A stretch of DNA of 64,000 nt from a virus (taxonomy: Duplodnaviria > Caudoviricetes), in IMG/VR virus record IMGVR_UViG_2811995254_000001, positions 11,803 through 75,802 of that record, one strand, 5' to 3'. This document shows positions 5,677 through 64,000 of this stretch, piece after piece; the stretch's first letter is position 1; each line of letters opens with the position of its first letter. Below the pieces are notes generated by a model, which had not been told where the DNA came from, searched no databases, and saw only the letters and a list, made by a program, of their open reading frames with translations. The position numbers and the translations under genes were made by a program.

Positions 5677-6381
5677 CTATTGTATTCCAATATTCGATTT
5701 AACCCAAATTTTAATAGCTTCTTTCACTCCTTCTTGAACCAAGATTCGCACAAGGTTCCCTCCTTCTTTAGTCATAAAACCAAACAATCTTGATATTTTT
5801 TTAGATATCGTCTTTTTAGTTGATTTATAAATAGTTTGCCTTATATCTTGAATTCGCTCTTCTATCTCTTCTACTACTTTAGGAGAACTTTGTTCAATAA
5901 TTTTCTCCTTATCTTTTTCTATTTTAGTTTGTATTTCAGTCAATAAAAACTCTATTTTCTCTATTTGATGTAAGGGATATGGGTTAATTTCAGCATCTTC
6001 ATCAATAATTTCGAAAGTATCATAATATTCTTCTGCAAATGATTCAACAATAGGGTCCTCTAAATCATCTATATATTTAAGTTGATTATACTTTGACATC
6101 ATAATCATCCAGCTTTCTAAACATTTCTTTAGATCAGAGATATCCATCCTTCTCTTATCTATTCCAATTATTGAATTTTCCTTAAAAGGTTTATAACTCA
6201 CTTCCAAAATGTGATTGCTGCCATTTATTTCTTCCTTTTCTATTTTAAAATAGAAATCTGAATTAGGATCTATATCTACAAATTTTACTATACCCTCTTT
6301 CTTAATAGTATAAATATCTTTTCCTCTGCTATAGTACTCTTGAAGTACTTCCAAAAGTTTGATGGATGTATTTTTTTTCAT
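5677..6381 (-). CDS. Moron of unknown function inside the head operon
   Basis: Preceded by a terminator (6410-6436) and followed by a re-start promoter for the next structural gene. Confidence 0.7.
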   Translation of the reverse strand: MKKNTSIKLLEVLQEYYSRGKDIYTIKKEGIVKFVDIDPNSDFYFKIEKEEINGSNHILEVSYKPFKENSIIGIDKRRMDISDLKKCLESWMIMMSKYNQLKYIDDLEDPIVESFAEEYYDTFEIIDEDAEINPYPLHQIEKIEFLLTEIQTKIEKDKEKIIEQSSPKVVEEIEERIQDIRQTIYKSTKKTISKKISRLFGFMTKEGGNLVRILVQEGVKEAIKIWVKSNIGIQ

Positions 6382-6409
6382 ATTACATTTATAATAAATG
6401 TAAATGTAT

Positions 6410-6436
6410 AAAAAAAAGCACCCTTTCGAGTGCTTT
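6410..6436 (-). terminator. Intrinsic terminator
   Basis: AAAGCAC/GTGCTTT stem with U-tract on the minus strand. Confidence 0.65.
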
Positions 6437-6439
6437 AGA

Positions 6440-7462
6440 TTATTCTTTAAGTTTTTTCAAGATCCACTCTAAATCTCCTTTCACAGTCGGCCCAGGTTCT
6501 TTATTAAACTTTTCAATGTACTTCGCTGTAGCTTCTTCCAAAGTCATTTCTACTTTATTAGTAGCTTCTGCTTGAGTAGATGGAGTGTTTATTTCATGAA
6601 CACTTCCTTTGTTAGCAGCTTCTAATTCAGCTCTCAACTTTGCAATTTCATCGTCTTTCGCTTGAAGTTCTTTTTCAGAAACTGTATTAACTGGGACAGA
6701 AGGAGTTTGTTCTTCTTGTTGAGTGCCAATACCTAGTTTTTGAGAAATAATCTGTAACATGTTGTAACTTTGCTCATTGTTTTGAGATAACAATCTTGCC
6801 AACTTCTCTACTCCAATTTCACCAGTACCCAATGTTAATATTAGGTTCTCAGTATCTGACCAAACCACAGCAGTATGTCCAAGATTTGTTTTTACAATCT
6901 TATCAATAAATGCTTTAGCAGCTATAAATTGAGATTCGTAATCCATACCTTCAATTTTAGAAATAACTTGTGTAGGATTACTAAAGGCTAATTCTTTTAA
7001 CTTAGCTATGGCCACAGTAGGTAAATAATGCATAGCATCTACACCTAATACAACGACACCTTTAGCTCTTACTTCTAAATCATTTGCTGACTCAATCAGT
7101 TTTAAAGCTTTCTCAATGTTGTTGTACTTAGATAAAGCCCTCTCACTTTCAATTTCTTCACTGAAGATTTCAAACTTTTTACCATAATGCGGATGTAACT
7201 TTAATAGGGTAATTAAGTTTACATCTGTATTAGGAACAGTTAATTCAGTTTTGTTTGTTGAAGGATTAAATTCAAAAGCGGGAATCAATTGTGGCTTTAA
7301 ATCTTTATTCTTGATATCTTCGACAAAGATAGAATCTTGACCTGGGTAGTATGCAGCAAATTTTAACCCAACTCCTTTTTTCTCAATCATTAAGCCATTT
7401 TGCTTAACACTCCAACTTGTAGGACTTCCTTTTAATAAAACGAATGTTGTTGTATTTGACAT
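6440..7462 (-). CDS. Conserved capsid-adjacent protein (crAss-like head module)
   Basis: Immediately downstream of the capsid gene; L.LHP motif. Confidence 0.6.
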   Translation of the reverse strand: MSNTTTFVLLKGSPTSWSVKQNGLMIEKKGVGLKFAAYYPGQDSIFVEDIKNKDLKPQLIPAFEFNPSTNKTELTVPNTDVNLITLLKLHPHYGKKFEIFSEEIESERALSKYNNIEKALKLIESANDLEVRAKGVVVLGVDAMHYLPTVAIAKLKELAFSNPTQVISKIEGMDYESQFIAAKAFIDKIVKTNLGHTAVVWSDTENLILTLGTGEIGVEKLARLLSQNNEQSYNMLQIISQKLGIGTQQEEQTPSVPVNTVSEKELQAKDDEIAKLRAELEAANKGSVHEINTPSTQAEATNKVEMTLEEATAKYIEKFNKEPGPTVKGDLEWILKKLKE

Positions 7463-43161: not shown

Positions 43162-43190
43162 AAAAGCCCCAATAAAGGGGCTTGTTGTTT
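43162..43190. terminator. Terminator
   Basis: AAAAGCCCC-AATAAA-GGGGCTT. Confidence 0.8.
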
Positions 43191-44244
43191 ATTTAGTCTC
43201 TTTGTTATAGTATAGAAGATAATAATACATCTGTCTTTCTTCATCCCATCCACGCTCAATAAATTTATCCGCGCTTTCAGGATTCACAAAATCAAGTTTG
43301 ATTGTGATGTTTGTATCCAGGTTGATCACATTTTTAAATTTCTTGCGCGCTTCGGTTACAGCCTTGTTTGAAATTGGAAAGGAGCTAACATCTTCGATAC
43401 TGTACTTCTCCCCTTTGTCTACTTTGTAGTTTTTGAACTCGGAAATTAGGTCGGGGTTATCGAGTACTTCGTTTAAGAAATTCGTTTCTTCGAAATCATC
43501 GTTCTTTGCGAAGTAATCTACTGAGCGATTCAAAAACATTACTTCTTCTTTTTTATCTTCAGCCGGAAGGACCACTTCTTTCGCGAAGTCTTGGCAGAAT
43601 TTCAAATACTTTTTGGTGTGGAAGTTTTCATCTTCAAAAATATCTAGTCCAAGGAAGTGTTCTAACCAATAACGCGCATCGTAACGATTGCTGTCGATTG
43701 TCAAGATTTTGTAACCTTCTTCTTTTTTGTAATTGAAGATTAGAACTCCTTTATCCAGCTTGCCTAGGTTTACCCCCTGCTCTAGTCGCATCTTTAGGTT
43801 TGATTCTTCCTTGTCGAATTGGATAAAATCAGTTTTGATTTCACTTTTAAAGATACCGATTGCATCAACTATATTGTTGTCGATTGATACATTGGTTAGG
43901 TAAGTAACATAAAGCTCTCCACTTTTGATATGAGGGTGTCCAGATTGATCATAAAGATGGCGAGCGATTTCTTTTGATTTATCATGAGCCGAATTAGGAT
44001 TTTGGAAAATGCTCGTTGCGATATTATACATGGTGTGAAATTCTAAATCAACATCATGTTCAAATCGGAAATAGTCTTCGTCTTTCTCTCGGAACGGTTT
44101 AAAGAAATACTCTTTAAGTAAAGGCGCGATTTCGTCTGTTAATGTATAAGGGTTCTCAGTTAAGAAAACGTCCTCGTTTCTTGCTTTGTTGTTTACTTGG
44201 TGTACAGATAATGTTTCAATCTGCGTGTTGAATAAATTAATCAT
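43189..44244 (-). CDS. Nucleoid-associated protein (YejK/NdpA-like, Bacteroidota type)
   Basis: LSVHQV.NK, HPHIKSGELYV, IGIFKSE, KLDKG.LIFN, YW...FL. Confidence 0.85.
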   Translation of the reverse strand: MINLFNTQIETLSVHQVNNKARNEDVFLTENPYTLTDEIAPLLKEYFFKPFREKDEDYFRFEHDVDLEFHTMYNIATSIFQNPNSAHDKSKEIARHLYDQSGHPHIKSGELYVTYLTNVSIDNNIVDAIGIFKSEIKTDFIQFDKEESNLKMRLEQGVNLGKLDKGVLIFNYKKEEGYKILTIDSNRYDARYWLEHFLGLDIFEDENFHTKKYLKFCQDFAKEVVLPAEDKKEEVMFLNRSVDYFAKNDDFEETNFLNEVLDNPDLISEFKNYKVDKGEKYSIEDVSSFPISNKAVTEARKKFKNVINLDTNITIKLDFVNPESADKFIERGWDEERQMYYYLLYYNKETK

Positions 44245-47407: not shown

Positions 47408-48158
47408 TCTGATTCTGATTTTTGTTGTTGCTATTTCTCTCCCAAGTGCGAACCGCAGCTTTCCAATCTTTCATTTTGGTTTTTCCAACCATCCAACCAT
47501 TGCTTTCGTAATGGTCAAAAAATCTTTGTGCATCGATTCCGTTGTTTCGTTCAAAACAGTATTCATGAATTTCTTCAACTGTCGGTTTTGAAAACCTTGT
47601 TTTTCGCGCAACTTTTTTTTGGAAAGATTCTTCGGCTTCTAATTCAACTGAATCGAATTCTTCAATTTTTTCATTTTGCCCTAAATATTCTTTTGTTTCT
47701 TTTTCTAAAAGAATATCATTAACACTATCACTTACACTAACACTTACATTATCACTAACACTTACAGCGACGTTTGCGAGTGTTTGCGAGGTTTTGTTAT
47801 CGCTATTGTCGCTAGGCGATGTTTTGCGATGGCTTGCTATTTTTTCAGCTTCGTCTATTGTAATTTGATTATCAGTGACTTGTCTGTGTAAATCAGGATT
47901 ATACCTTTTTAGATTTCCCATTCGTCCATTTAGTGACCTATCAGCTTTTGTTTTTTTATACTTATTCAAATCTCTTTTTAATTGATTTTTTATCGGCTCA
48001 AAAACAAGATCTAATATTTCGTTTTCAGGAGTGGGACTTTGGTCGTTTACATATCGTAATATGTGTTTGAATAGTTTTCCTGCAGTTTCATCACTGAGTT
48101 TCTCAATAGTGCTAATCATATCTTTATATAGAACAAAGGAGTTTTTATTCTCTGCCAC
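47286..48158 (-). CDS. Replication initiator (DUF6291 N-domain, DnaD/O-like C-domain)
   Basis: KNSFVLY.D...L.DE.AG.LF..I..Y; KPT.EEI..YC.ER...F.D.YESNGW.VGK.KMKDWKAAVRTWE. Confidence 0.8.
   Translation of the reverse strand: MAENKNSFVLYKDMISTIEKLSDETAGKLFKHILRYVNDQSPTPENEILDLVFEPIKNQLKRDLNKYKKTKADRSLNGRMGNLKRYNPDLHRQVTDNQITIDEAEKIASHRKTSPSDNSDNKTSQTLANVAVSVSDNVSVSVSDSVNDILLEKETKEYLGQNEKIEEFDSVELEAEESFQKKVARKTRFSKPTVEEIHEYCFERNNGIDAQRFFDHYESNGWMVGKTKMKDWKAAVRTWERNSNNKNQNQNGQQQERFVGRQSIDTIQHNANVGYEAAERVRKQMLNDTN
47714..47830. repeat. Short degenerate repeats, candidate replication-origin iterons
   Basis: CACTTACA/CACTAACA/ATCAC 6-bp-period array and three TTTGCGA within the initiator gene, as in lambda O. 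Confidence 0.5.
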
Positions 48159-48356: not shown

Positions 48357-49046
48357 TTAATAATCTTCTCTATACCATTCAACACCTATAGAGTCGTCGT
48401 AATCTGTAATCTGAACTTGAGCAGAGTAAAGTCTAAATATCTTAGCTTCAATGCCTCTAAGACTAACCATTTTACTTGGCGTTACTTCTGATTGTTTGTT
48501 GTCAAAATATCTTTCTTTCATTTTGAATGAAAATATTTTACCTCTTTCTGTACTAAATATGAATCTTACTGCGCAATCTGATTCTTTTTGATTAGAATCT
48601 ATATCTGCATTTACTTCTATCCGTGAATGCTCTTCATTATAAACTACATGAAATGAAATTTCCCCACTATACTCATGACTATCTTCCATAGCTGCGATTT
48701 TAAATAAATCTGCTATCTCGTCAAGTGTGATTGTTTTCTCATTCACAAATCCAATGATGTCTTGTGTCATATCTAGGATTGGTTGTAAGTTCACTTGCTG
48801 TAAGAGGTTTTCATTAATGGTTTTTGCAATCAAAGAATTGTAGTCTATTAAATCGAACTCTTGAAGATTTACATTGATAGATTCTTCAATTTTTTGTTTG
48901 ATTTGCTTAGATACATCACCATAACTTCGAAATGTATCTTTTACAATATCTTGTACCATTTCTGATACGTATTTAGTTACCATTTCAGGTAATTTTTCTG
49001 CTACTACTGTTTTTACAGCTTCTTGTGTTACTTTATTAAAGTCCAT
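48357..49046 (-). CDS. Hypothetical phage protein
   Basis: 229-aa ORF in the early operon. Confidence 0.7.
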   Translation of the reverse strand: MDFNKVTQEAVKTVVAEKLPEMVTKYVSEMVQDIVKDTFRSYGDVSKQIKQKIEESINVNLQEFDLIDYNSLIAKTINENLLQQVNLQPILDMTQDIIGFVNEKTITLDEIADLFKIAAMEDSHEYSGEISFHVVYNEEHSRIEVNADIDSNQKESDCAVRFIFSTERGKIFSFKMKERYFDNKQSEVTPSKMVSLRGIEAKIFRLYSAQVQITDYDDSIGVEWYREDY

Positions 49047-49083
49047 TATATTGTTTTTTAATAGGGTTAAAAATTAGTTTTGA

Positions 49084-49518
49084 CTAAAAAGGGAGGTTAT
49101 CGTTATCGTCTTCCTCGTATTGTGATGTTGGAGGAAATTGATTACCTGGTGCAGGTTGGCTTTGTTGATTTTGTTTCCATTGTTGATGAGCATCTGCTGC
49201 CGAACCTTGGCCGTGGTAAGTGCCGTCTTGCATTTGTGGTTGGTTTACAGCTGCAGTAATTTTCCAAGCTTGAATCGTATTGAAGTATCTTACTTCGCCT
49301 TGTGGTGAAGTCCAACTTCGTCCTTTAAGATTTAAGTCTACCTTTACGTAAGTTCCGACTTGGAATCCGTCTAGTAAATTCACTCTATCTTGCGTCACTT
49401 CGATTAGAATGTCTTGTGGGTATGTTTCGTCAGTAGTGATAACAAACTCTCGTTTTTTAAAAGAAGAGCTAATATCTTGAGTGCTTCCTATTAGTTTTAT
49501 ACGTCCTTGTATGTCCAT
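49084..49518 (-). CDS. DUF3127 family SSB-like protein
   Basis: FKKREFVITT.E.YPQ...NLKGR.W...YFNTIQAWKI; acidic tail ending NLPF. Confidence 0.9.
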   Translation of the reverse strand: MDIQGRIKLIGSTQDISSSFKKREFVITTDETYPQDILIEVTQDRVNLLDGFQVGTYVKVDLNLKGRSWTSPQGEVRYFNTIQAWKITAAVNQPQMQDGTYHGQGSAADAHQQWKQNQQSQPAPGNQFPPTSQYEEDDNDNLPF

Positions 49519-49520
49519 GG

Positions 49521-49688
49521 TTAAATATTTGGTGGTGAGATTGTTTGCCCATTTTCGTTATAATGAACACACTTATACCATTCGTTTTTTAGTTTCTCAT
49601 ACTCTTTTGATTTATGATCATTCCAACCATAAATACTAGCTTCTTTTTTAAGAGTTTCTATTTCTTTTTTAATCGTTTCTTTACTCAT
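49521..49688 (-). CDS. 55-aa hypothetical protein (not in ORF track)
   Basis: MSKETIKKEIETLKKEA...; ends 2 nt before the DUF3127 start. Confidence 0.55.
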   Translation of the reverse strand: MSKETIKKEIETLKKEASIYGWNDHKSKEYEKLKNEWYKCVHYNENGQTISPPNI

Positions 49689-49821
49689 ATTATTTTGCCG
49701 ATTCCTACAATCGGGAAGTTTTACTTATTATATTTACACTATACTTAACAATAAGTACTTTTAAGTATTATTTTAACTATAATTAAATTATTTATCTCAA
49801 TAAAATCAGTAACTTTATTAT

Positions 49822-50190
49822 CATAAAAACAGGTTTCAACAAAAGAAAGCAAGCACAGTCTGTTTTTCATAATACAATTTTCAATCTAAATTTTATTTTA
49901 TTGCTACTAGGGCTGTGCTTTGCTTTCATATAAAACATGAAAGAGGGTATAGGGACTTTTCTGCATCAATAAAAACAAAATGTTTTTATAAAAGTGGGGA
50001 CTTCATTGCAGATTTTTAAACATATACAACCTAGACCTCTTTCTACTATTTTAAAGGAAAGGAGTAGAAAATTTATTAAGTAGTCGATTGTGTATTAAAT
50101 TAATTAGGTGTAGATTCAGTCACAATGATTACAATCAATGGTAGTTTTAAATAACATTACAAAAATTAATTAATACTCCTTTCTCTTTTT
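49822..50190 (+). ncRNA. Candidate structured RNA: three tandem GAAAG...CTTTC-closed domains
   Basis: Domains at 49845-49927, 49939-50043 and 50057-50183; G-U pairs favour the plus strand; variant -7 box TAACTTTA at 49810-49817. Confidence 0.6.
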
Positions 50191-50204
50191 CATCTTCCAT
50201 CATC

Positions 50205-50600
50205 CTATAATTTTTCAATATCTACATCCCAAATACCTAGTTTGCCTTTTACATTTAGAATCGGTTTTTCATAAAAAACAGCATCTTTTAAAACCCAATG
50301 CCAAATGCCTTGGCCTTTATCTGCCCAAATTGATTTGTGGTTTTGAACACAATCTACAATGGTAACTTCGCCGATAATTGCTGAATTTTTAAATTGAAAC
50401 TCGTCAATATTATCTGTGACTTCTTCTCTTTCTTTTGAAAGTCGATCGCTCTTATCTGGATGCATTGACGCATGTATGTAAACACGTCCTCTGAATCTAG
50501 TTCGCCAAGTTCTGTTCTCAATGTCCTTAACCCCTAGGCAGATTAACTCTGCCCAAGGTTGCTTAACGGATAGTGCTTTAGTTATTTCTTTGCCAGCCAT
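50205..50600 (-). CDS. ASCH domain protein
   Basis: ALSVKQPWA.LI..G.KDIENR.W...RG...IHAS. Confidence 0.92.
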   Translation of the reverse strand: MAGKEITKALSVKQPWAELICLGVKDIENRTWRTRFRGRVYIHASMHPDKSDRLSKEREEVTDNIDEFQFKNSAIIGEVTIVDCVQNHKSIWADKGQGIWHWVLKDAVFYEKPILNVKGKLGIWDVDIEKL

Positions 50601-51558
50601 CTGCGATTTGTTTTAGGGTTTCACGTTCTTTATTTACAAGCCATTCACGAGCCATTGTAACTCGTCTAGTCATGTGTTTGATGTCTTCTTCTGTAAGGGT
50701 TACATTGAATGATTTAAGACGCATATGTGGAGGTATTGAAAAGTCTTGAATCGGGTTGTAGAAGTCGTAACCAGGATATTCTTTTTTAAACTTCGATACG
50801 TCAAAAATCATGTTTCGCTCTAGTTGAGCAACTTTATAACGAAATTCTTCGTCTGTGTCGTCAGGTTGTCCCATTTGAAACCACATTCTTCTCTTTTCAT
50901 CTTCAATTAGATGAAGAGGAGCGTTAACTAAACAATACACAAGTTCAGATTCTGTTTTGGTTTCTAATTCAGGTAAGTCATAGCTATGAACAATCCACAT
51001 ATAACCTTTCAATTGCCATTCGTACAATGTTTTTAGTTCTGCGTTGTCAAATGATTCTAAGTCCCAATTGGTCTTAGTATCTTTAGTCTTCTTTTGAAGA
51101 TTATCTGGGGTTCCTTGGATAAAATCATTACTTAGATGTTCATCGTTCTTTCGGTAGAAAAACTCATCGCGTTGAGATTTTAAATCGAGAGCATCCTCTT
51201 CACAGATTGTTCCCTTGCTTAGGTATTTGTTTTCAAGGAATCTTCTACGTTTCCAAAATAAATGGCGAAACACTTCTTCTAAGTGGGTAATTGCGCCTGT
51301 CGGAAGTTTATCTTTAGGCTCTATTCTTTTGACAATGTTTTGGAGTTGTTCTAATTCCTTTTCTTTAGTATCATCCCATTTATTAGGCCTATTTGTCTCA
51401 GGATTCTTTCCTGTTCTTTTAATATCAAGTAGTGTTTGTATTCTTACACTGTCTTCTTCTGTTGCTTCTCTTAAGGGTTCTGGAAGGTTTGTCAATAACT
51501 TTCCAAGTGAAGAACATCTTTCTTTCCAATTGGTGAATATTAGGTTTTCTGTTTGCAT
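50578..51558 (-). CDS. YqaJ/lambda-exonuclease-like nuclease
   Basis: RCSSLG, KG...E, GTPD...DTK, Y.WQL.GYM PD-(D/E)xK motifs. Confidence 0.85.
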   Translation of the reverse strand: MQTENLIFTNWKERCSSLGKLLTNLPEPLREATEEDSVRIQTLLDIKRTGKNPETNRPNKWDDTKEKELEQLQNIVKRIEPKDKLPTGAITHLEEVFRHLFWKRRRFLENKYLSKGTICEEDALDLKSQRDEFFYRKNDEHLSNDFIQGTPDNLQKKTKDTKTNWDLESFDNAELKTLYEWQLKGYMWIVHSYDLPELETKTESELVYCLVNAPLHLIEDEKRRMWFQMGQPDDTDEEFRYKVAQLERNMIFDVSKFKKEYPGYDFYNPIQDFSIPPHMRLKSFNVTLTEEDIKHMTRRVTMAREWLVNKERETLKQIADGWQRNN

Positions 51559-51563
51559 GGTTG

Positions 51564-53189
51564 TTAATTAAAATGTTCTTGGATTTTTGACCAACCAAAT
51601 TGATTTTTAAGTAAATCAAGTGCTTTGGTTAATGGGTAGGTAGTCTCTGTAAGATTGTATTGCCTCATAAAACTTTCGCATCCCATTTTACAAGCTCCAG
51701 TTAGTAATCTGAATTCAGAAACAGAGATTGTTTGTTTTTCTTTAATCTCTTTGACAAGATCTTGCACCTCTAAGTTTTCTTGTAAGTATTTAAAGTTTAC
51801 ATCTTCAATTGCTTGTTTTATAGTTTCTCCGTGGGCATAGTATTTATCCCTTTTCGCTACAAAACACTTTTCTTTTCTGTTGAATAACGATCCTTCATAA
51901 ATCGTGAATTCGTCTCGTTTCTTCTTTGAGCGTATAATCGTAGCGATACTATCAATCATTTGGATTTTATGATTTGCTTGTGTGATAATTACACTTTCTT
52001 CAAACGCCCAATCGCCGATGTGAGTAACTGAACTAGGAATCTCTACCGATGTAAGCTGATTGTTTTCAAACGCCCAATCGCCGATGTGAGTAACTGAACT
52101 AGGAATCTCTACCGATGTAAGCTGATTGTGACGAAACGCCCAATCGCCGATGTGAGTAACTGAACTAGGAATCTCTACCGATGTAAGCTGATTGTGACGA
52201 AACGCCCCAGAGCCGATGTGAGTAACTGAACTAGGAATCTCTACCGATGTAAGCTGATTGTTTTCAAACGCCCCAGAGCCGATGTGAGTAACTGAACTAG
52301 GAATCTCTACCGATGTAAGCTGATTGTGACGAAACGCCCCAGAGCCGATGTGAGTAACTGAACTAGGAATCTCTACCGATGTAAGCTGATTGTGACGAAA
52401 CGCCCCAGAGCCGATGTGAGTAACTGAACTAGGAATCTCTACCGATGTAAGCTGATTGTGACGAAACGCCCAATCGCCGATGTGAGTAACTGAACTAGGA
52501 ATCTCTACCGATGTAAGCTGATTGTGACGAAACGCCCCAGAGCCGATGTGAGTAACTGAACTAGGAATCTCTACCGATGTAAGCTGATTGTTTTCAAACG
52601 CCCAATCGCCGATGTGAGTAACTGAACTAGGAATCTCTACCGATGTAAGCTGATTGTGACGAAACGCCCAATCGCCGATGTGAGTAACTGAACTAGGAAT
52701 CTCTACCGATGTAAGCTGATTGTGACGAAACGCCCAATCGCCGATGTGAGTAACTGAACTAGGAATCTCTACCGATGTAAGCTGATTGTTTTCAAACGCC
52801 CAATCGCCGATGTGAGTAACTGAACTAGGAATCTCTACCGATGTAAGCTGATTGTGACGAAACGCCCAATCGCCGATGTGAGTAACTGAACTAGGAATCT
52901 CTACCGATGTAAGCTGATTGTTTTCAAACGCCCAATCGCCGATGTGAGTAACTGAACTAGGAATCTCTACCGATGTAAGCTGATTGTGACGAAACGCCCC
53001 AGAGCCGATGTGAGTAACTGAACTAGGAATCTCTACCGATGTAAGCTGATTGTGACGAAACGCCCCAGAGCCGATGTGAGTAACTGAAAAACCATCTATT
53101 GTGGTAGGAATTACAATCTGTTCTTTATTTGAATCGACACCAGTAATTTTAATAGTGTCATGAGTGACTTTTGTGTATGTAAATTTCAT
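51564..53189 (-). CDS. BspA/TpLRR-type leucine-rich repeat protein with a C-terminal phage domain
   Basis: 16 x (SG/DW)AF(RH/EN)NQLTSVEIPSSVTHIG; C-terminal AHGET...A..D, FR.LTGAC..GCE.F; no signal peptide. Confidence 0.9.
   Translation of the reverse strand: MKFTYTKVTHDTIKITGVDSNKEQIVIPTTIDGFSVTHIGSGAFRHNQLTSVEIPSSVTHIGSGAFRHNQLTSVEIPSSVTHIGDWAFENNQLTSVEIPSSVTHIGDWAFRHNQLTSVEIPSSVTHIGDWAFENNQLTSVEIPSSVTHIGDWAFRHNQLTSVEIPSSVTHIGDWAFRHNQLTSVEIPSSVTHIGDWAFENNQLTSVEIPSSVTHIGSGAFRHNQLTSVEIPSSVTHIGDWAFRHNQLTSVEIPSSVTHIGSGAFRHNQLTSVEIPSSVTHIGSGAFRHNQLTSVEIPSSVTHIGSGAFENNQLTSVEIPSSVTHIGSGAFRHNQLTSVEIPSSVTHIGDWAFRHNQLTSVEIPSSVTHIGDWAFENNQLTSVEIPSSVTHIGDWAFEESVIITQANHKIQMIDSIATIIRSKKKRDEFTIYEGSLFNRKEKCFVAKRDKYYAHGETIKQAIEDVNFKYLQENLEVQDLVKEIKEKQTISVSEFRLLTGACKMGCESFMRQYNLTETTYPLTKALDLLKNQFGWSKIQEHFN
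52002..53087 (-). repeat. 66-bp coding tandem repeat, 16 full units plus a partial unit
   Basis: Units identical except TCTGGG/GATTGG and CGTCAC/GAAAAC. Confidence 0.97.
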
Positions 53190-58208: not shown

Positions 58209-58216
58209 TACTTTTG
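58209..58216 (+). promoter_or_regulatory. -7 promoter box antisense to the early leader
   Basis: TACTTTTG matches TAnnTTTG. Confidence 0.6.
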
Positions 58217-58221
58217 CAAGA

Positions 58222-58560
58222 CGAATTATCGTGTAATAACGATGATAAAAGAAAGCTAACACAGGCGGATGTATAACACAAGCCAGAACAGCGTTTGGTA
58301 GTAACATTGTGTTACACGTTTGATAGAGCAGTGCTTATCAGACTTTATGAAACCTGTGTTTTGCTTTCTGAAAGGTTTTTAATTTTTGACAGGTATTGCC
58401 GCCCCTTATGGCGGTTTGAAACAAAGCGAATTAAAATATAGAACTACGTAAATAGTTCATTAACTAGATTAAAACGTTTGTTTCCCAATATGTCAAGGAA
58501 CTTTAATAATCACTACATAAGTTTGTTTTTGAAAGGGTAAACTTGTGTAGTGGTTTTTGT
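58222..58560 (+). ncRNA. Candidate structured antisense RNA with GAAAG-closed domains and a terminal hairpin
   Basis: Domains at 58251-58368 and 58370-58504; hairpin 58509-58553 plus T-rich tail; G-U pairs favour the plus strand. Confidence 0.6.
58486..58504 (-). promoter_or_regulatory. boxA-like antitermination site
   Basis: AAAGTTCCTTGACATATTG about 60 nt into the early transcript; resembles my recollection of the Bacteroidota rrn leader boxA. Confidence 0.45.
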
Positions 58561-58565
58561 TGTTA

Positions 58566-58628
58566 CAAATATATACGCATTTGCGTAAAATAAAAATGTT
58601 TAAATGTTAAATTTTACTCATTTGCGTA
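58566..58628. promoter_or_regulatory. Early lytic promoter and two putative CI operators
   Basis: Minus TATATTTG at 58566-58573; palindrome TACGCATTTGCGTA at 58574-58587 and TACTCATTTGCGTA at 58615-58628. Confidence 0.75.
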
Positions 58629-58642
58629 TTAATTATATATAT

Positions 58643-59395
58643 ATGACTGTAAATCAAAAGATTGAGGAATTAATAATTAGAGAATGTAAAGGAAATAAAT
58701 CTGAATTTGCAAGAAGAGTTGGAGTTAGTCCAACTGTAATTGAAAATATCGTAGGTTCTAGAAAAGGCAAGCCTTCATTCGAAGTTTTATCTAAAATTTT
58801 AGGTTCTGATTTGTCAGTAGATCCTAGTTGGTTGTTTGATTTAGATGCTAATAATTCGGTTGTTCATGATTCTGTATTCGCTATTGATACTGAATTTGTA
58901 GATGACGAAGTAGAGGTATTTACAAATTCAAATGGGAATAAATTTTACTTGTACCCAAACAACAGAATTGAAATAGAGGTTATCAAAGTTCCTTTCCCTG
59001 CGTATGCATCATACATTGAATGTTATCAAGACGAAATGAATAGCTTTAATGGATTTGATACAATTCGTTTCAAGGCGGATCACATTGCTAAAGGAAATTA
59101 CATTTGCTTTGTGAGCGAGGGTGATTCAATGTGGAATGAAGGCGGCTATGATACACCAGGAGGTTCCGAAATTCTAGCCCGTGAGATTGGGCGTCAGTTC
59201 TGGGACAATTTACATAGTACAAAATATGGTTTAATTTTTGTAACTAAAACCGGTATTATGCACAAAGATATTGGAGGATATAATAAAGAAACTGGAATGT
59301 TCTCTTTATGCAGTAGAAACCCAGAACACAAACCTTTTGATTACCCTGCAAATGATGTATATCAGATATTTAATGTTATAAAGAGAAGTTTTTAA
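58643..59395 (+). CDS. CI-like repressor (HTH plus S24 peptidase)
   Basis: NKSEFARRVGVSPT HTH; GDSM serine and HKDI lysine; divergent from the early operon; MTVNQK start preferred because the upstream ATG overlaps an operator. Confidence 0.88.
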   Translation: MTVNQKIEELIIRECKGNKSEFARRVGVSPTVIENIVGSRKGKPSFEVLSKILGSDLSVDPSWLFDLDANNSVVHDSVFAIDTEFVDDEVEVFTNSNGNKFYLYPNNRIEIEVIKVPFPAYASYIECYQDEMNSFNGFDTIRFKADHIAKGNYICFVSEGDSMWNEGGYDTPGGSEILAREIGRQFWDNLHSTKYGLIFVTKTGIMHKDIGGYNKETGMFSLCSRNPEHKPFDYPANDVYQIFNVIKRSF

Positions 59396-62704: not shown

Positions 62705-64000
62705 TTACAAGGCTTGTTGTTTCCAATAATCTGCTAACATTTTAGCTGATTCCAGATTTGTTTGTTTATTGTATTCTAGCATTTGTTTTTCACTTTTCCA
62801 CCCACAAACATCCATAATTACTTTGTTAGGTAATTTTCCTATGTGGTTTGTAGCAAAAGAACGTCGGCAAATGTGTGAAGATACTAATTTGTGTTTAGGA
62901 TATTCTCCTACTTCCTTTCTTACAGTATCTTCTCCTGTACTACCATCAACTTTAGTTTTTATTTTTCCGCCAATTATCATAGTGGAAATTTTAGCTAATT
63001 TACAAATTGCTTTTATTTCTCGGTTAAATTCTTGTTCAAACGTTTTAGGTGGCAGTCCTTTCCATTTTTTTAATATCTCCTTTACTTGAGGGTGTAATGG
63101 TATAGTTACGCTGTGATTTGTCTTAAAAGTTTTGATGCTAATAAAGTCTCCTTGGATATCTTCTGTTTTTAGTCTATTCAAAAAATCTGATACTCGCATG
63201 CCGGTCCATAATCCAATAATGAAATTATCGCGTATTGCATCTCTTTTCTTATCTGCAATCTTCAGTTTATATATTCTATTAATTTCTTCTACATTCAAAT
63301 ATGGGGCTTTATACTGAACTTCTGCTTTCTGTATGTAAACTATTTCACGATATCCTTTATTTACTTTTAGATTTAACTTTTCGGCACGTTCACAAAAGAA
63401 CTTTGCACGAGAAACATGTCTATGTACAGTTGTTTCAGAAAACCCGCGTTCATTTGATAAATAACTACTGAAGCTGTCTAGGAACTTATTATCAACATCA
63501 ATAAGCTTTATCGGGTCTTTACCTTCAAAGTCTATTAAAAGATCGCGTAATCTACTATTATGACTGATTGACTTTTCATTCATATACTTGTTAGCAGCTA
63601 CTTTATGTGTTTCTGCTTTATTTTCAAGCCACCAAGTCGCAAAAGAAGTTAGGTATATTTCCTCTTTCTTTATTTTAAAATTACTCTCTGAAGTTGGCCT
63701 ATTAAAAAATTCATTCACCTTATTGGAGATCCAAAACTTGTCAATTGTTTCACCTTGGATATAAGATGAATTGAATTCTGTTAGGATAAAAACTTTAAGC
63801 TCACCTAATTTTAGATTGATTTCATTTCTATTCTTTACAGCAAGAACGTTTTTGATTTGTTCTTTTTTTGAATCCCAGTGATCAGGATTAATCGAAATTT
63901 GTATTCGATGAAAAACATCAATTTGTTTTGTATGTAAGAATCTTAGATACAAAGTTGAGGGGTTAGAATTCCCTCTAAGAAGAAATTTAACTGTAGCCAT
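62705..64000 (-). CDS. int: Tyrosine integrase
   Basis: TGMRVSD (R), KT (K), HICRRSFAT (HxxR), GW, EYNK (Y); N-terminal arm-binding and SAM-like domains. Confidence 0.95.
   Translation of the reverse strand: MATVKFLLRGNSNPSTLYLRFLHTKQIDVFHRIQISINPDHWDSKKEQIKNVLAVKNRNEINLKLGELKVFILTEFNSSYIQGETIDKFWISNKVNEFFNRPTSESNFKIKKEEIYLTSFATWWLENKAETHKVAANKYMNEKSISHNSRLRDLLIDFEGKDPIKLIDVDNKFLDSFSSYLSNERGFSETTVHRHVSRAKFFCERAEKLNLKVNKGYREIVYIQKAEVQYKAPYLNVEEINRIYKLKIADKKRDAIRDNFIIGLWTGMRVSDFLNRLKTEDIQGDFISIKTFKTNHSVTIPLHPQVKEILKKWKGLPPKTFEQEFNREIKAICKLAKISTMIIGGKIKTKVDGSTGEDTVRKEVGEYPKHKLVSSHICRRSFATNHIGKLPNKVIMDVCGWKSEKQMLEYNKQTNLESAKMLADYWKQQAL

Follow-up and report, generated by a model that had tools for sequence, protein, structure and literature searches.

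The locus described here raises the question of what a temperate phage encodes in the longest interruption of its early operon. The stretch of DNA analysed, hereafter the window, comprises 64,000 nucleotides (nt), which correspond to bases 11803-75802 of a Caudoviricetes provirus recorded in IMG/VR at a length of 75.8 kb (IMGVR_UViG_2811995254_000001, here G000), and its right arm is a temperate-phage control region. There, a long minus-strand early operon diverges from the gene of a cI-like repressor (58604-59395, plus strand) and encodes, in this order, a Rha/ANT antirepressor, a Cro-like helix-turn-helix (HTH) protein, an exonuclease, an ASCH protein, an orphan open reading frame (ORF) of 55 amino acids (aa), a DUF3127 protein, a DUF6291 protein and others. 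On the ORF map, these genes are spaced by 2-37 nt, with the sole exception of a gene-free gap of 516 nt (49689-50204) flanked by the 55-aa ORF (49521-49688, minus strand) and by the ASCH gene (50205-50600, minus strand). A preliminary description of the locus had placed three consecutive fold-backs, each clamped by GAAAG...CTTTC, in this gap. We conclude that the array, which has the recombination genes (exonuclease, ASCH) on one side and the SSB-like and replication genes on the other, is a genuine structured element, statistically unusual and undescribed, for which strand, transcription and function are proposals only. The reading that we favour, with a probability of about 0.4, is that the gap encodes a structured non-coding RNA on the plus strand, which would be antisense to the early operon and lie at the border that precedes the replication genes.

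The anatomy of the gap is as the preliminary description had it, with units of 83, 105 and 127 nt separated by linkers of 11 and 13 nt, and RNAfold closes each unit with the stems listed there. On the plus strand, unit 1 (49845-49927) has the closing helix GAAAGCAAGCACAGTC / GGCTGTGCTTTGCTTTC, with one bulged T, around an AU-rich interior hairpin. Unit 2 (49939-50043) is closed by GAAAGAGG/CCTCTTTC plus TAGG/CCTA and contains a branched inner hairpin, and unit 3 (50057-50183) is closed by GAAAGGAGTA/TACTCCTTTC, a helix that flanking AAAG/CTTT can extend. The closing helices enclose interiors of 54-107 nt in a gap with a GC content of only 0.25-0.29. The end of unit 3 had also been said to resemble the 3' end of 16S rRNA, and the arms of this unit do resemble a Shine-Dalgarno (SD)/anti-SD duplex. 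The same likeness (GAAAGGAG/CUCCUUUCU) is seen in the arms of units 2 and 3, in a phage that avoids SD motifs, and may be a coincidence because GAAAGGAG occurs six more times in the record. Two junction hairpins (CTTTCAT/ATGAAAG and TTTCTACT/AGTAGAAA) were rejected as a true repeat, as they are no better than background and are out-competed by the clamps in the folds.

Compared with dinucleotide shuffles, the RNAfold energy of the whole array is better than that of 100 out of 100 shuffles on both strands, with z scores of -5.12 (plus) and -2.18 (minus), in agreement with the fold-backs initially described. Taken singly, each unit is better than 200 out of 200 shuffles on the plus strand, although these scores are flattered by unit boundaries that were picked post hoc. 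The energies on the plus strand are -24.3 kcal/mol for unit 1 (z -5.06), -26.3 for unit 2 (z -3.96) and -25.2 for unit 3 (z -3.83), against -19.0 (z -3.29), -21.6 (z -3.11) and -18.1 (z -2.09), respectively, on the minus strand, so that each unit is 5-7 kcal/mol more stable on the plus strand. When the clamps are folded in a context of 701 nt, their pair probabilities are at least 0.94 on the plus strand, except for one pair of unit 1 at 0.66, and range from 0.39 to 0.98 on the minus strand. In an unbiased scan of the whole record, with 1510 windows of 356 nt on both strands regressed on GC content, the plus-strand window of the array ranks seventh, 2.5 standard deviations below expectation. 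Among the most structured windows of the record are also overlapping minus-strand ones at 5702-6602 of G000, left of the window, in a non-coding segment with strong terminator-like hairpins and without GAAAG clamps.

Long-range stems are common in such DNA. In a related record, stems of at least 8 bp, G.T pairs allowed, occur 33 times per kb per strand, or 3.6 times per kb when at least three G-C pairs are required, and bare GAAAG-N-CTTTC shows no enrichment in the window, with counts of 2 and 6 where 3.8 were expected in each case. Clamps of at least 8 bp that carry the GAAAG/CTTTC handle are much rarer, with 20, none of them in tandem, in ~488 kb of other loci counted on both strands (~0.02 per kb). 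At this frequency, by our own arithmetic, the Poisson probability of finding three within 0.5 kb is of the order of 1e-7. The improbable part is thus the tiling of three clamps that share one handle and not the single stems.

A fourth unit is related to the array. Unit 4 (58251-58368, plus strand, 118 nt) lies upstream of the repressor gene and has the closing helix GAAAGCTAACACAGG / CCTGTGTTTTGCTTTC around a three-way junction. Units 1 and 4 are clear paralogues in their arms (14-16 nt), 12 of 14 positions matching in the 5' arm and 14 of 15 in the 3' arm. The homology between the two that had been claimed earlier therefore stands for the arms, including the compensatory change of one pair from G-C to A-T, and does not extend to the interiors, which have nothing in common; in addition, one pair is lost, from A-T to T.T. 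Unit 4 folds with -39.2 kcal/mol on the plus strand (z -4.17) and -39.3 on the minus strand (z -5.66), and windows of its region rank first, second and fourth in the 356-nt scan. It shows no difference from the copy in a related record, G002, while its flanks carry 11.

Around unit 4, the plus strand presents a canonical -7 box, TACTTTTG (58209-58216), which ends 35 nt upstream of the unit and is conserved in G002, followed by a 5' hairpin (58225-58246). Downstream lies a multi-branch domain (58387-58495) clamped by TGACA...TGTCA. Inside this domain lie a GC hairpin at 58398-58415, with a compensatory change from C-G to A-T, and a GAAAC...GTTTC clamp at 58418-58484, with one from C-G to T-A, as seen in G002 and another relative, G001. 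An intrinsic terminator (58510-58566) follows, with a hairpin of 21 bp and the U-tract TTTTTGTTGTT. In three related proviruses, three pairs of this hairpin are kept through two-sided changes, and its many U.G pairs are valid on the plus strand only, since they become C.A on the minus strand. Based on the -7 box, the covarying helices and the terminator, a plus-strand RNA of ~340 nt (~58223-58566), with unit 4 as one of its domains, is well supported as a prediction upstream of the cI-like repressor gene. The region 58223-58566 has no match in Rfam. A second canonical -7 box, TATATTTG (58566-58573, minus strand), faces TACTTTTG at a distance of ~360 nt. Both boxes are located where the repressor gene and the early operon part, and their orientation implies that the switch region is probably transcribed in a convergent and overlapping manner. 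An insert of ~500 nt with two convergent small ORFs of ~85 and ~65 aa separates the arms of the GAAAC...GTTTC clamp in G002 (L082 1790-2290, ~58430-58475 here), and these arms are still complementary.

Known identities were considered for the array. None of the 4227 families of Rfam 15 reached its gathering score in the window, and the only matches at the array itself, with E values of at least 1.9, were far below that score, so that the novelty claimed in the preliminary description stands in this respect; nor is such an element described in the titles and opening lines of the abstracts that our literature search returned. ARAGORN found no tRNA or tmRNA gene in the window. A canonical intrinsic terminator, with a G+C-rich stem, a loop of 3-8 nt and a T run, is not compatible with the size of the unit interiors, and a terminator scan of 49400-50400 called sites only at 50300-50314, inside the ASCH gene. 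Arrays of direct-repeat RNAs, such as CRISPR or ToxI-type antitoxins, were rejected because no repeat family spans the units; Tandem Repeats Finder reported only repeats of 21 nt x 1.9 and 12 nt x 2.2, both left of the array. A retron is discounted since no reverse transcriptase (PF00078) was matched in the 75.8-kb record, in a search to which control genomes did respond. In a miniature inverted-repeat transposable element or other terminal-inverted-repeat element, terminal arms and related interiors would be shared by the copies, between target-site duplications; here only units 1 and 4 share arms, around unrelated interiors, with no flanking duplication seen by eye. The core sites of integron attC are RYYYAAC ... 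GTTRRRY, and the ends found here are GAAAG ... CTTTC. A phage replication origin was rejected for the gap, which holds no iterons or DnaA boxes, and so was a decayed gene, as tblastn of the seven small ORFs that G001 carries at this place gave only E values of at least 0.6 against the gap.

Indirect observations lead us to prefer the plus strand. Each unit of the array is more stable on this strand, unit 4, the arm paralogue of unit 1, sits in the plus-strand RNA predicted beside the repressor gene, and the array is preceded by promoter-like sequences and followed by a T-tract. Bacteroidetes promoters are of the -33/-7 type, with TAnnTTTG as the -7 consensus. The variant -7 box that had been noted earlier is indeed found at 49810-49817 (TAACTTTA, plus strand), where it ends 28 nt before unit 1 and is non-canonical. 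A better candidate promoter may be the arrangement TTTA-N19-TACTTTTA (49733-49763, plus strand; TACTTTTA at 49756), which resembles the -33/-7 type with G replaced by A in the final position of each box, and within which GTACTTTT recurs on the plus strand upstream of the array. A perfect palindrome of 8 bp with a 12-nt spacer, ATACTTAA-N12-TTAAGTAT (49741-49768), overlaps it. The T-rich tract TCTTTTTCAT (50184-50193, plus strand), directly 3' of unit 3, is a possible 3' end of the RNA, judged from its sequence; it was not among the sites called by the terminator scan, in which loops are limited to 3-8 nt. A T-tract also follows unit 1 on the minus strand.

A plus-strand RNA from the array is therefore plausible, and we infer its transcription, its ends and a regulatory effect from these features. 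The RNA would run from roughly 49770 or 49825 to about 50193 and would consist of three independently folding domains, each shut by a long-range helix. It would act in cis, either by pairing with read-through early mRNA or by transcription collision, and would thereby limit or time the expression of the downstream replication module, with a logic like that of lambda OOP and other multi-stem-loop antisense RNAs. Significant folding of both strands is expected for a cis-antisense pair, and the surrounding cI-like repressor, Cro-like HTH protein, Rha/ANT antirepressor and integrase fit an antisense regulator. The GAAAG/CUUUC base that the units share is probably a purine-tract/U-tract helix inherited by duplication and not a handle for a protein; it may be the mere foot of terminator-like helices spread by duplication.

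Several observations nevertheless weigh against a plus-strand antisense RNA. The preference for this strand that had been drawn from G-U pairs is weak, since the minimum-free-energy folds of units 1-3 contain 2, 0 and 5 such pairs on the plus strand and 2, 1 and 2 on the minus strand (7 against 5), a slight asymmetry, and DNA parameters put the strands nearly level (z -4.44 and -3.73). By consensus scans, the canonical TAnnTTTG is absent from both strands of the gap, and no canonical terminator was called there in the scan of 49400-50400. The RNA would not reach into any coding sequence or start site, an antisense RNA has no need of three clamped domains, and nothing about such an RNA accounts for the common GAAAG handle. 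The array is also dispensable, as the close relative G001 has seven small ORFs instead, and units 1-3 offer no evidence of covariation because the copies in G002 and in the contigs of sequencing run X2 are identical. In the RNA libraries X19 and X20, no contig covers 49826-50152, and the contigs are uninformative on expression, strand or ends.

The most serious alternative, although an unlikely one, is that the minus strand is the functional one and that the folds act within the polycistronic early mRNA as a cis boundary of transcription or processing between the recombination genes and the replication module, possibly by terminating part of the transcripts, by letting an RNase enter or as a 3' structure that protects the message. 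This requires no assumption of a promoter. With minus-strand genes on both sides and short gaps elsewhere, the gap has to be read through, and a single minus-strand transcription unit, starting from the -7 box TATATTTG at 58573, takes in all four units. On this strand, UUUU follows units 1 and 4 (GCUUUCUUUUGUUG and GCUUUCUUUUAUC), and unit 4 folds at least as well as on the plus strand. Units 1-3, in contrast, lose 5-7 kcal/mol, the clamp probability of unit 2 falls to 0.39-0.68, and the helices that flank unit 4 are specific to the plus strand. The interiors are also far outside the range of canonical terminators, which the phage uses elsewhere.

The distribution of the array bears on the remaining readings. 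ASCH genes are abundant in IMG/VR, being encoded by 560 of the 562 matched stretches. Among the best 80 loci with ASCH relatives, on which the locus counts rest, the array is present in one (L003, which is G002) and lacking in 79. In G002, the array and everything left of it are 100% identical, and the ASCH protein is 81% identical, so that this copy has no variation to offer. In G001, where the ASCH protein is 91% identical, the slot is filled by the seven tightly packed small ORFs and has no array. Among contigs, those of run X2 carry the array with no difference, one of run X3, 8568 nt long, spans 48616-51312 with 162 substitutions and no gaps, a divergence of roughly 6%, and one of X19 joins DUF3127 and ASCH relatives across a different insert of 963 nt. 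By these comparisons, the array is an optional filling of a hypervariable slot and is confined to one phage lineage.

Wider searches did not extend this lineage. Pattern scans of IMG/VR with the clamp of units 1 and 4 around interiors of 3-120 nt returned only G002, and blastn searches of INPHARED phages, in the 'distant' setting, gave no match to the array or to the unit 4 region. Relatives of DUF3127 were found at 15 loci in genome_contigs, with at most 57% identity, and at 27 loci in metagenome_contigs, with at most 58% (67% for one fragment of 27 residues), and none had the array. Of 401 genomes sampled from the family to which an Empedobacter hit belongs, 77 contained short, weak matches only, and five named genomes gave no match. 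A folding screen of 30 intergenic gaps for tandem clamped domains of this kind carries no information, as the gap of the array itself was not recovered if folded whole.

The sole gene that co-occurs with the array is the 55-aa ORF, in G000 and G002 only. It belongs to no Pfam or PHROG family and has only two homologues, with 58% identity; used as a query, alone or as an alignment of three sequences, it found only G002. Just upstream of its start, a hairpin CCGATT...AATCGG (49698-49714, minus strand) forms a conserved linker at the edge of the slot, which was found only in G001 and G002. Together with the motif GGGAAGTTTTA, this hairpin is seen 8-10 nt upstream of the start codons of certain slot genes, and G001 has two copies of it (15113 and 15723, L105), one of which has the compensatory arms CCACTT/AAGTGG in place of CCGATT/AATCGG.

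The preliminary description had proposed small RNAs of ~83, 105 and 127 nt, cut at the linkers, with GAAAG:CUUUC as a protein handle and the interiors as cargo acting in trans as decoys, guides or antitoxins. We consider this doubtful to a degree that makes it quite unlikely. One handle of 5 bp on four otherwise different units, the tiling with short linkers and the arms kept by units 1 and 4 around unrelated interiors are what it would predict. The layout also recalls phage arrays of tRNAs and stable RNAs, and arms like an SD:anti-SD duplex stand out in a phage without SD use. Yet the handle looks equally like the base of a purine-tract/U-tract helix, and the interiors show complementarities at chance level only, the target search that had been suggested for the loops giving a best E value of 0.006-0.02. 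The 'family' of arrayed RNAs comes down to a clamp type present in this provirus and in the near-identical G002, with no further member among IMG/VR sequences with interiors of 3-120 nt. Nor is a partner at hand. The ASCH protein, which had been named as a positional candidate, is excluded because it co-occurs with the array in only 1 of 80 loci and because G001 lacks the array; an ASCH-associated RNA is rejected on the same count. The other neighbour, the 55-aa ORF, is of no known family.

An element acting as double- or single-stranded DNA, in which the inverted repeats would serve as a replication or priming signal, as a recombination hot spot or as repeats bounding exchangeable cassettes, appears improbable. 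The folds differ little between the strands, above all with DNA parameters, and the AT-rich gap lies within a recombination/replication module, in a slot whose content is quite different among relatives; the GAAAC...GTTTC arms near unit 4, which in G002 bracket ~500 nt with two ORFs, would also be in keeping with cassettes. However, arms that are 50-110 bp apart are poorly suited to cruciforms or to the binding of dimers, target-site duplications were not seen, the contigs aligned to the region contain no inversion joints, and no recombinase is adjacent, the sole integrase of the window being encoded at 62705-64000 (minus strand). For replication, the gap has neither iterons nor DnaA boxes, and an iteron-like repeat of 12 nt x 4 at 47714-47766, inside the DUF6291 gene, is a better candidate origin. 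The tandem repeats there extend over 47714-47794 (4.1 copies of 12 nt followed by 3 of 10 nt), and we regard them as a candidate for the replication origin, inside what may be the initiator gene.

We give equally little credence to the array being neutral, recently acquired filler of the hypervariable slot, with palindromes that arose, for instance, by duplication and inversion of terminator-like hairpins. Its restriction to one lineage, its dispensability in close relatives, the frequency of long-range stems of at least 8 bp in this AT-rich DNA and the six other 356-nt windows that are as far or further below the GC expectation are all compatible with filler. Against this, chance is a very unlikely source of three tiled clamps with the same handle, the arm paralogue, unit 4, shows perfect conservation between diverging flanks, and its arms are still paired after the change from G-C to A-T. 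Least probable of all are modular stable RNAs, in which one protein or RNase would bind the constant closing helix and three structured cargos would act as decoys in trans, the helix of units 2 and 3 possibly copying the duplex of SD and 16S 3' tail (GAAAGGAG / CUCCUUUCU) and having as its target, for example, the machinery that may bind or sequester the anti-SD tail in Bacteroidetes ribosomes.

Two features of the provirus fit a Bacteroidetes-type host. In the whole record, SD motifs precede 3 of 86 predicted genes, compared with 7.7% of random positions, and the closest characterised phages, with protein identities of at most 33%, infect Flavobacteriia. Elsewhere in the window, a nucleoid-associated protein of the NA37 family (351 aa, Pfam E value 1.4e-55) is encoded at 43189-44244 on the minus strand. 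A protein of 541 aa, encoded at 51564-53189 on the minus strand, contains 16.5 near-identical leucine-rich-type repeats of 66 nt (22 aa) at 52002-53088, and the local GC content, 0.42-0.47, is well above that of the surrounding DNA.

Should the array prove to be transcribed and functional, it would be a new regulatory RNA, unusually elaborate and placed where the early genes give way to replication in a temperate phage of the Flavobacteria type, a group of phages in which, to our knowledge, RNA regulation is almost unexplored. Together with the covariation-supported RNA beside the repressor gene, it would add an RNA layer to the lysis-lysogeny circuit of these phages, and the closing helix that units 1 and 4 share around unrelated interiors would be a natural modular RNA scaffold. 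If it is not transcribed, the array is an oddity of a hypervariable slot.

Several known systems resemble the array in part. Like it, bidirectional intrinsic terminators pair a 5' arm rich in A or purines with a U-rich 3' arm and have T-tracts, which in the array lie at its outer ends, after unit 3 on the plus strand and after unit 1 on the minus strand. The array differs from them by interiors of 54-107 nt instead of loops of 3-8 nt, and the consensus scan called none. Phage arrays of tRNAs and stable RNAs, such as the tRNA cluster of T4, which includes two stable RNAs, likewise consist of tandem units of ~80-130 nt closed by pairing of their own 5' and 3' ends and separated by short linkers. 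In contrast to phage tRNAs, the units have no cloverleaf and no CCA, and ARAGORN recognised none in the window. The early polycistronic mRNA of T7 contains intergenic hairpins processed by RNase III, one site per gene junction. Like these, the array places structured elements with common base-of-stem features between early-operon genes, whereas its three units are in tandem without genes between them and differ in size and in their branched interiors.

Closer in logic are the antisense RNAs. The multi-stem-loop antisense regulators of plasmids, ColE1 RNA I/RNA II and R1 CopA/CopT, have short and local hairpins, unlike the long-range clamps of the array. They share with it stem-loops that are mirrored on both strands, several domains in a row and significant folding of both strands. 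The cis-antisense RNAs of phage early regions, lambda OOP and P22 sar, are about 70 nt long and form one hairpin. The array, at about 370 nt with three clamped domains, has no coding overlap and no relation to them in sequence or in Rfam, and its transcription is proposed. As in lambda and P22, nevertheless, it would be a small RNA gene opposite the early operon, immediately ahead of the genes for replication, in a temperate phage with a cI/Cro-type switch.

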